From positions 35,802-73,110 of the forward strand of contig CAZIDX010000005.1 in NCBI GenBank assembly GCA_964538435.1: a stretch of 37,309 nucleotides of DNA, in the 5' to 3' direction. The notes beneath the pieces were generated by a model. It had not been told where the DNA came from. It did not search any database and saw nothing but the letters and a program-made list of their open reading frames with translations. The DNA is from an uncultured Gammaproteobacteria bacterium (GTDB lineage Bacteria > Patescibacteriota > Patescibacteriia > UBA9934 > GWF2-40-263). The position numbers were made by a program, and so were the translations under genes. Of the stretch, positions 4,548 to 4,640 are shown in pieces; the first letter of the stretch is position 1; the number at the start of each line of letters is the position of its first letter.

Positions 4548-4640
4548 GCGTGTGGTTTTGGTGAATGGGGTGACAGCGCAGGAGTCGTACTAAAACGTAC
4601 GGCGACAAGCTGTCGGGGCCCCATGAGCCGAAAACACGCC
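4548..4640 (+). ncRNA. candidate structured RNA element, copy A (AAUGGGG...three nested helices...GGGGCCCCAUGA)
   Basis: Long imperfect hairpin. Aligns with 16181-16303; the middle helix covaries between copies. No match to an RNA family I can name. Confidence 0.4.

Follow-up and report, generated by a model that had tools for sequence, protein, structure and literature searches.

Small RNAs that derive from tRNA transcripts include the E. coli RtT RNA of the tyrT operon, the 3'ETS-leuZ sponge, the snoRNAs of plant tRNA-snoRNA dicistrons and the RNAs of the MALAT1/mascRNA system. The RNase P-processed 4.5S RNA and tmRNA are further RNAs freed by tRNA-processing enzymes, and the tRNA expression machinery also serves eukaryotic Y RNAs, vault RNAs and snoRNAs. 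SRP, 6S and Y RNAs are marked by a GNRA-capped domain IV, a central bubble and a Ro-binding bulged helix, respectively, and usually come from a single-copy gene. Among dispersed palindromes, REP/REPIN elements consist of two inverted REP units that form a hairpin, occur in many extragenic copies and are associated with a RAYT (Y1 transposase) gene, and MITEs carry conserved terminal inverted repeats and a target-site duplication. K-turn and box C/D RNAs have a C box (RUGAUGA), a D box (CUGA), a 3-nt bulge beside tandem G-A pairs and single-stranded guides. To our knowledge, CPR bacteria, whose genomes are tiny, have almost no characterised ncRNAs beyond the universal ones. Stem-loop guide units of the TIGR type have been reported in CPR bacteria (PMC12045711).

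The whole stretch of DNA analysed here (37,309 nt; hereafter, the window) contains two look-alike hairpins, copies A and B, and a divergent third member, copy C (Table 1). These hairpins are real members of a strongly supported, apparently undescribed structured-RNA family in Uhrbacteria-type CPR genomes, a family that can be placed among the dispersed structured RNAs and repeats already known from bacteria. Judged by analogy, it is most like the RNAs carved from tRNA transcripts in its workings and is homologous to none of them. The initial annotation had described copies A and B as long imperfect hairpins; sequence and folding bear out the positions and the shape, and the hairpins are real but somewhat longer than described. 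Each copy folds as RNA into a single long imperfect hairpin (-57.9 kcal/mol, z = -6.9 for copy A; -70.7 kcal/mol, z = -9.8 for copy B). The AATGGGG...GGGGCCCC frame measures exactly 59 nt in both, and the gapped pattern AATGGGG-N-GGGGCCCC was matched twice in the window, both times on the plus strand, with 0 matches expected from 100 shuffles.

Table 1. Positions of the family copies and of neighbouring features in the window.
Feature	Positions	Strand	Remarks
Copy A, full hairpin	4532-4656	+	conserved core 4564-4626; R1 103 bits, R2 104 bits
Copy B, full hairpin	16180-16304	+	core 16212-16274; R1 113 bits, R2 112 bits
Copy C	22834-22971	-	divergent member; model match 22841-22958; R1 56 bits, R2 83 bits
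tRNA-Ile(GAU) and tRNA-Phe(GAA)	22681-22833	-	directly downstream of copy C
Sigma-70-like promoter, TTGACC-17 nt-TAAACT	23002-23030	-	~30 nt upstream of copy C, same strand
Terminator-like hairpin	22674-22658	-	after tRNA-Ile/tRNA-Phe
Intrinsic-terminator-like hairpin	16310-16344	+	6 nt after copy B
Near-consensus promoter, TTGACA-17 nt-TATTAT with TG	4735-4763	-	antisense to copy A, from its 3' side
U-run hairpin	4450-4514		conserved
rpsP	5061-5579		
Near-consensus promoter of rpsP	5023-5050		11/12 matches; downstream of copy A
pyrD, called as 420-aa ORF	15050-16312	-	corresponds to L051 820-2082
MVP-like gene	6753-8839		573-626-aa product
Second two-copy hairpin element	4855-4985; 8860-8995		GAAGGAUCCCC...GGGGAUCCUUCGC stem, common CUCAGGAUGAC end
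Direct-repeat families D1, D4, D5, D9	540-2560; 3711-4353		20-57 nt
37-nt repeat	20745-21335		97% identical; flanks ORF 20774-21298

The helices of copies A and B were compared as annotated. As had been claimed, the AUGGGG/CCCCAU helix is the same in both copies, the middle helix has changed and is still paired (GACAGC/GCUGUC in copy A, CCACC/GGUGG in copy B), and the outer stems are unlike in sequence between the copies with complementarity retained. The inner helix, which had been taken to be identical, is not strictly so: CGUAC...AUACG in copy B contains one C-A mismatch. A third occurrence of a motif had been placed at 8869-8880. The string itself (GTGGGGCCCC) is present there, but the site is not a copy of the element; it gave no covariance-model match with filters off and is part of another local hairpin. 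The second two-copy hairpin element of the window has one copy upstream of rpsP and the other between the MVP-like and PNP genes, and its 8860-8995 copy contains this GTGGGGCCCC string.

Further members were collected by pattern and by covariance model. A seed scan with AATGGGG-N(40-65)-GGGGCCCCATGA, run on one genome per species, returned 42 loci, 10 of which are obvious homologs that share the same 62-65-nt core, the internal motifs and the long flanking stems; the other 32, and likewise L045, are chance pattern matches. The 10 homologous matches come from 7 assemblies, 4 titled Candidatus Uhrbacteria and 3 MAGs titled Lentisphaerae or Gammaproteobacteria. A further 4 distinct contigs came from a metagenome scan in which the 5' half was left unconstrained, and viral contigs gave 0 pattern matches. 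The invariance of AAUGGGG/GGGGCCCCAUGA is in part a product of this collection method, the first members having been gathered by a fixed sequence pattern. A covariance model (R1, refined as R2) then detected divergent copies in which the search pattern is missing. With R2, the total came to 25 distinct copies on about a dozen contigs, mostly labelled Uhrbacteria, with at least three family copies per genome, and the aligned members carry compensatory pairs. As a negative control, the 32 chance-match loci, the bulk of the 402 kb searched, were scanned with R2 and yielded nothing below E = 0.05. Copy C, which carries UGCGC/GCGCA in place of the AUGGGG/CCCCAU helix, had been missed by the initial annotation, as had the linkage to tRNA genes described below. 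Rfam 15 was searched at gathering threshold with the window and 14 loci and matched only rRNA, tRNA and the SAM riboswitch; around copies A and B, with E up to 10, it gave only noise outside or partly on the element, which thus matches no Rfam 15 family. Full-text searches of the published literature found no description of the element.

Consensus folding with RNAalifold (12 sequences) gave 41 pairs, and compensatory changes occur in 28 of these. Across 22 copies, 95.3% of the cells are standard pairs and 35/41 pairs have changed on both sides, as counted in an alignment that was fitted to the model. The covariation score of these 22 copies is 0.663, compared with at most 0.11 when the pairing partners were slid by 1-3 columns, and 0/500 shuffles attained the observed covariation values. 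Selection on structure, as first proposed from copies A and B, is strongly confirmed with 25 family members aligned. The consensus is a rod of ~125-150 nt, or up to ~200 nt with an expanded tip; at L026 1746-1947, an ~80-nt branched expansion of the distal domain leaves the basal module intact. P1 is the long outer stem, with a conserved inner half (AAAAUCG/CGAUUUU) and a freely varying outer 8-10 bp. Next comes a basal motif, in which a bulged A leads into a 3-bp helix (UGA/UCG) and then a GA/GA 2x2 loop. Tipward of this motif lie P3 (7 bp), a near-invariant UGAA/UGAR 2x2 loop (tandem G-A) and P4 (6-7 bp, AUGGGG/CCCCAU or covarying versions), and a 3-nt bulge, usually GGG, sits on the 3' strand between P4 and P5. 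Beyond P5, a further tandem G-A loop closes the apical P6 hairpin, whose loop is unconserved. Conservation is high in the core and variable at the ends and tip, with variability greatest in the alignment columns of the outer stem ends.

The initial annotation had left the choice between an RNA and a DNA cruciform; the RNA option fits better and the cruciform is disfavoured, because the U-G wobble of the UGA/UCG helix is kept in 20/22 copies, because G-U outnumbers A-C among paired cells by 59:12 (39:12 without the invariant wobble column; p ~2e-4), and because folding energies are strand-asymmetric. In 11/12 canonical copies, folding of the motif strand is more stable than that of its complement by 10-27 kcal/mol, and the divergent copies behave likewise. 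Polarity of this kind is in keeping with a single-stranded nucleic acid, read on the AAUGGGG strand, and speaks against a double-stranded cruciform. The same strand asymmetry would also be expected of a hairpin recognised as single-stranded DNA.

In eight of the 25 copies, a tRNA gene of the same orientation begins right after the element, 0-4 nt from the hairpin base and 5-10 nt from the model end. The tRNAs that follow are Ile, Arg-GCG, Arg-UCU, Ser-CGA, Ser-GCU, Gln, Asp and Glu. At ~45 tRNA genes per Mb (our estimate), such adjacency would by chance be a one-in-thousands event. In the window, the 3' end of the copy C hairpin adjoins position +1 of tRNA-Ile, and the promoter upstream, copy C, tRNA-Ile, tRNA-Phe and the terminator-like hairpin make up one predicted transcription unit. 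Sense sigma-70-like promoters were found 7-75 nt upstream of 8/23 copies, and a promoter aimed from the far side was found at only 3 of the 23. Sense intrinsic terminators follow 3 copies, namely copy B (16310-16344), L026 1746-1947 and L049 3404-3532. The hairpin after copy B is kept at its position in L052, a syntenic relative of the window, with compensatory changes, and on the minus strand it could serve as the terminator of the KH gene. The neighbours of the copies are ordinary housekeeping genes (aaRS, rpoB/C, dnaE, pyk, tpi); all-against-all BLAST and Pfam on 100 ORFs showed no recurrent neighbour protein.

Our preferred reading, held tentatively and at somewhat short of an even chance, is that the element is the gene of a small, stable, rod-shaped ncRNA on the AAUGGGG strand, one of a dispersed CPR family and often the 5' part of a tRNA precursor. 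From the computed family, structure, strand polarity, tRNA adjacency and promoter and terminator motifs, we infer transcription, RNase P release and protein binding as follows. Ordinary sigma-70-type promoters would drive transcription, very often of a hairpin-tRNA precursor with the hairpin RNA as its 5' portion. RNase P, cutting at tRNA +1, would produce the 3' end of the hairpin RNA, a role that would fall to an intrinsic terminator in stand-alone copies (copy B, for instance); copy A also stands alone. On the simplest reading, the sequence-conserved G-A loops and the G-rich bulge would form a docking surface for a putative protein, and the hairpin RNA would work in trans, either to scaffold or to sequester. 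Duplication would give rise to new copies, with rapid turnover from lineage to lineage.

The element resembles the tRNA-transcript-derived RNAs in its same-strand placement, near-zero spacing to the tRNA, shared upstream promoter and predicted RNase P end. It differs from them in that it is multi-copy, also occurs without tRNAs and shows no homology to them (no Rfam match, RtT included). Of the features that define an RNA embedded in a tRNA precursor, same-strand adjacency was found in 8/25 copies and promoters were found upstream of the hairpin, with release by RNase P predicted. Some observations count against an RNA gene. Copies A and B have no recognisable sense promoter in the promoter scan; a strong antisense promoter and a U-run hairpin beside copy A would transcribe the complement; and presence or absence at syntenic sites, together with a truncation at L015, also fits a selfish mobile repeat.

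Such a repeat is the main rival, which we consider somewhat unlikely. It would be a non-autonomous palindrome, REPIN- or MITE-like, whose single-stranded DNA hairpin is used by a transposase encoded elsewhere and whose co-transcription is passive; single-stranded DNA would account for the strand asymmetry as well. In its favour, the copies are numerous, intergenic and in either orientation to the neighbouring genes, and some are clustered in pairs (divergent in L013, convergent in L050, tandem in L015). The tandem pair (L015 340-610) lies ahead of a tRNA-Ser. Its upstream copy is of an older type, homologous to L013 2677-2795, and has lost its 3' outer arm exactly at the start of the canonical copy, which suggests that the canonical copy inserted into or replaced that arm. 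The two conserved arm segments of the element resemble one another as imperfect inverted repeats. Neither copy A nor copy B is present at the syntenic sites of L052, which has no family copy anywhere in 21.7 kb, though the alignment still runs through the flanking terminator hairpins and the minus-strand promoter where the copies are absent. What the window has in excess of L052 at the copy A site is the whole hairpin, as expected of an inserted unit. This presence and absence means that copies turn over between lineages.

The distribution of conservation argues the other way. The termini are the least conserved part of the element and the interior the most, the reverse of MITEs and of terminal inverted repeats, and no consistent target-site duplication or target motif was found at the hairpin bases; a MITE was rejected on the variable outer stem ends and the lack of a recurrent flanking duplication. 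No transposase, reverse transcriptase or RAYT was seen in the window or among the 100 neighbouring ORFs, where the sole mobile-type match was one phage integrase at a single locus. Copies within a genome are not near-identical but have diverged with compensatory changes, as in the same-genome paralogs of L015 and L026, which differ by compensatory pairs in P1. A position 0-4 nt before tRNA +1, with promoters upstream, also looks like use of the transcript. Compared with REP/BIME/REPIN, Correia, BOX, RUP and ERIC repeats, the element is likewise a dispersed intergenic imperfect palindrome of ~100-150 nt, probably co-transcribed with its neighbours, present or absent between relatives and maintained in its pairing. 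Inverted arm segments and dispersal, as in REPINs, are thus present, and a Y1 transposase was not found in the window or the 100 neighbouring ORFs. The element further differs from these repeats in its variable ends and conserved interior, its precise pre-tRNA position, its strong RNA-type covariation and its conserved U-G pair, and it has no GTAG/CGTC tag, terminal inverted repeats, target-site duplication or nearby transposase.

A cis-acting 5' leader of tRNA precursors, which would control or assist tRNA transcription or maturation and of which the stand-alone copies would be relics, appears unlikely. Possible roles at this same low level of likelihood are protection of the 5' end, an RNase III or RNase P entry site, or modification of RNA polymerase. 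The eight same-strand tRNA adjacencies with promoters upstream of the hairpin agree with it, as does a CUAU-like sequence often found just 5' of tRNA +1. Against it, 17/25 copies have no tRNA downstream and keep the full conserved core, the best-scoring copies among them; copy B and L026 1746-1947 have terminators of their own; and the hairpin is missing from several tRNA units in the same loci. The core, moreover, is invariant to the identity of the downstream tRNA, on which ground a T-box-like specifier was also rejected.

More speculative still, and in our view doubtful, the element may be the RNA subunit of an undescribed RNP of Uhrbacteria-type CPR, or a new kind of element that spreads under RNA-level selection. 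For the RNP, we reason by analogy: a rod with tandem G-A loops that would be an RNase P product of tRNA precursors recalls Y RNAs, vault RNAs and snoRNAs, a parallel in which we place equally little confidence, and the partner might be an MVP homolog or an L7Ae/Nop-like protein encoded by these genomes. A multi-copy element with strong covariation and conserved G-A loops, fused 5' of tRNA genes, is a concrete, clonable candidate for a lineage-specific RNP or, alternatively, for a selfish element at the RNA level. The likeness to Y RNA (Ro60), vault RNA, 4.5S SRP RNA and 6S RNA is one of shape only. In common with these RNAs, the element pairs its 5' and 3' halves into a long stem, conserves its internal loops and bulges while its helices vary, and measures ~100-150 nt. 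It differs in being multi-copy and matching no Rfam model, with no TROVE or Ro protein seen, and, relative to the SRP and 6S RNAs, in having no GNRA tetraloop, SRP domain IV loops or 6S central bubble. SRP, 6S and Y RNA were rejected on the lack of an Rfam match, the unconserved apical loop and the three or more copies per genome. The vault RNA parallel extends to an MVP-like protein encoded in the window, whereas the MVP loci of relatives are without a copy: no family copies were found near 4 MVP homologs in 71 kb. A genomic link to the MVP-like gene is thus not supported; such genes are common in Uhrbacteria, yet no copies lie near these 4 homologs.

K-turns, box C/D RNAs and TIGR units (PMC12045711) share with the element tandem sheared G-A motifs, AUGA-like sequences and variable palindromic flanking stems, and TIGR units share its CPR hosts. 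Unlike a K-turn, the element has symmetric 2x2 G-A loops with no adjacent 3-nt bulge, and unlike box C/D and TIGR units, it has covarying helices between the motifs rather than 8-12-nt single-stranded spacers. TIGR units (PMC12045711) also differ in their arrays and in a nearby Nop/Tas gene, neither of which accompanies the element. A TIGR guide unit was rejected given that copies are single or paired, with no common neighbour protein and no large spacer loops, and a K-turn or C/D register of the basal motif is contradicted by variants that have GGA, AGA or AAA for CGA. Hammerhead, twister and other ribozymes were also rejected; no models matched, and although the element contains GAUGAG and GAAA strings, it lacks the essential CUGA uridine turn.

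It is very unlikely that the hairpins are factor-independent terminators or insulators acting in both directions between genes. The tRNA that converges on the hairpin from the opposite strand in L035, the position of copy A at the end of a minus-strand unit and the convergent pair in L050 are compatible with that role. No U tract follows the hairpins, however, and separate canonical terminators lie beside copies A and B and L026 1746-1947. Neither deep conservation of internal loops nor strand asymmetry is needed for termination, and a position between promoter and tRNA would be counter-productive. An intrinsic terminator, in which a U tract comes immediately behind a G+C-rich stem, was rejected on the missing U tract, the scan having flagged only the separate hairpin at 16310-16344.

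The original proposal of a regulatory leader or protein-recognised DNA cruciform tied to the rpsP-KH-rimM-trmD cluster drew on copy A lying 400 nt upstream of rpsP and copy B lying between KH and pyrD-trmD, and is extremely unlikely: rpsP has its own promoter downstream of copy A, copy B is antisense to KH, pyrD and trmD, L052 has the same gene order and neither copy, none of the other 22 copies adjoins these genes (their neighbours being unrelated housekeeping genes), and the G-U asymmetry speaks against a double-stranded DNA cruciform. The tie to the cluster is thus coincidental as judged by the rpsP promoter, the L052 synteny and the placement of copies elsewhere. An rpsP leader, which would occupy the 5' UTR of its r-protein operon in sense and be conserved at orthologous positions, was rejected for the same promoter position, for the lack of the element in L052 and for the location of other copies away from r-protein genes.

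L052 encodes an MVP-like protein 68% identical to that of the window. Its gene order is rpsP, radical SAM, PNP and MVP, followed by trmD, pyrD and KH on the opposite strand. In both the window (5061-16713) and L052 (5981-14974), the rpsP-KH-(rimM)-trmD operon is split, with rpsP on the opposite strand to trmD, pyrD and KH, and the 6-9 kb between rpsP and trmD/pyrD/KH hold radical SAM, MVP-like, PNP, AAA_5 and DUF7192 genes. Since L052 has the same split order without the copies, the split predates them, and an inversion between copies A and B was rejected as its cause on that ground. As read from the two sequences, the split layout is ancestral to the clade and unrelated to the hairpins.

Recognition of the element also improves annotation, as over-extended ORF calls such as that of pyrD now swallow it. 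The 420-aa pyrD call, which exists in a public assembly, runs its first ~50 codons through copy B. The pyrD start codon was placed at 16162, 17 nt from copy B, which lies upstream of it: the N-terminus MLFPRIQGLLYRNLLKPILF is conserved, pyrD is called as 370 aa in a relative, and the L052 alignment agrees. The 420-aa ORF is therefore an over-extension.

Copy A lies between the strong minus-strand promoter at 4763-4735 and the conserved U-run hairpin, and its complement may be the strand that is transcribed at that site. The promoter is conserved in L052, which is without copy A, and is part of an adjacent conserved unit on the minus strand rather than of the element. Between the window (4450-4815, minus) and L052 (5560-5900), the promoter, ~70 nt downstream of it and the U-run hairpin are all conserved; the ~70-nt stretch includes a CUCUC-UGGG-GAGAG hairpin. 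No Rfam match was found for the 4450-4815 minus-strand stretch, which from its sequence looks like a small RNA gene with copy A antisense within its 3' part.

Several other features of the window were recorded. The MVP-like gene encodes a homolog of the eukaryotic major vault protein (Pfam MVP_shoulder, 9e-29; Vault repeats; Band_7), with ~30% identity between eukaryotic MVP and the window protein. A SAM riboswitch (60.9 bits) lies directly upstream of this gene and a PNP_UDP_1 (MTA/SAH-nucleosidase-type) gene after it. About 100 MVP-like homologs were found, many in Candidatus Uhrbacteria and others in Anaerolineae, Eremiobacterota and DPANN and Asgard archaea. The direct repeats near the start of the window recur between unannotated ORFs without Pfam matches, and a further repeat there, D8, is itself a hairpin. 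The ORF flanked by the 37-nt repeat encodes a PaaX central/Cas2-like domain.
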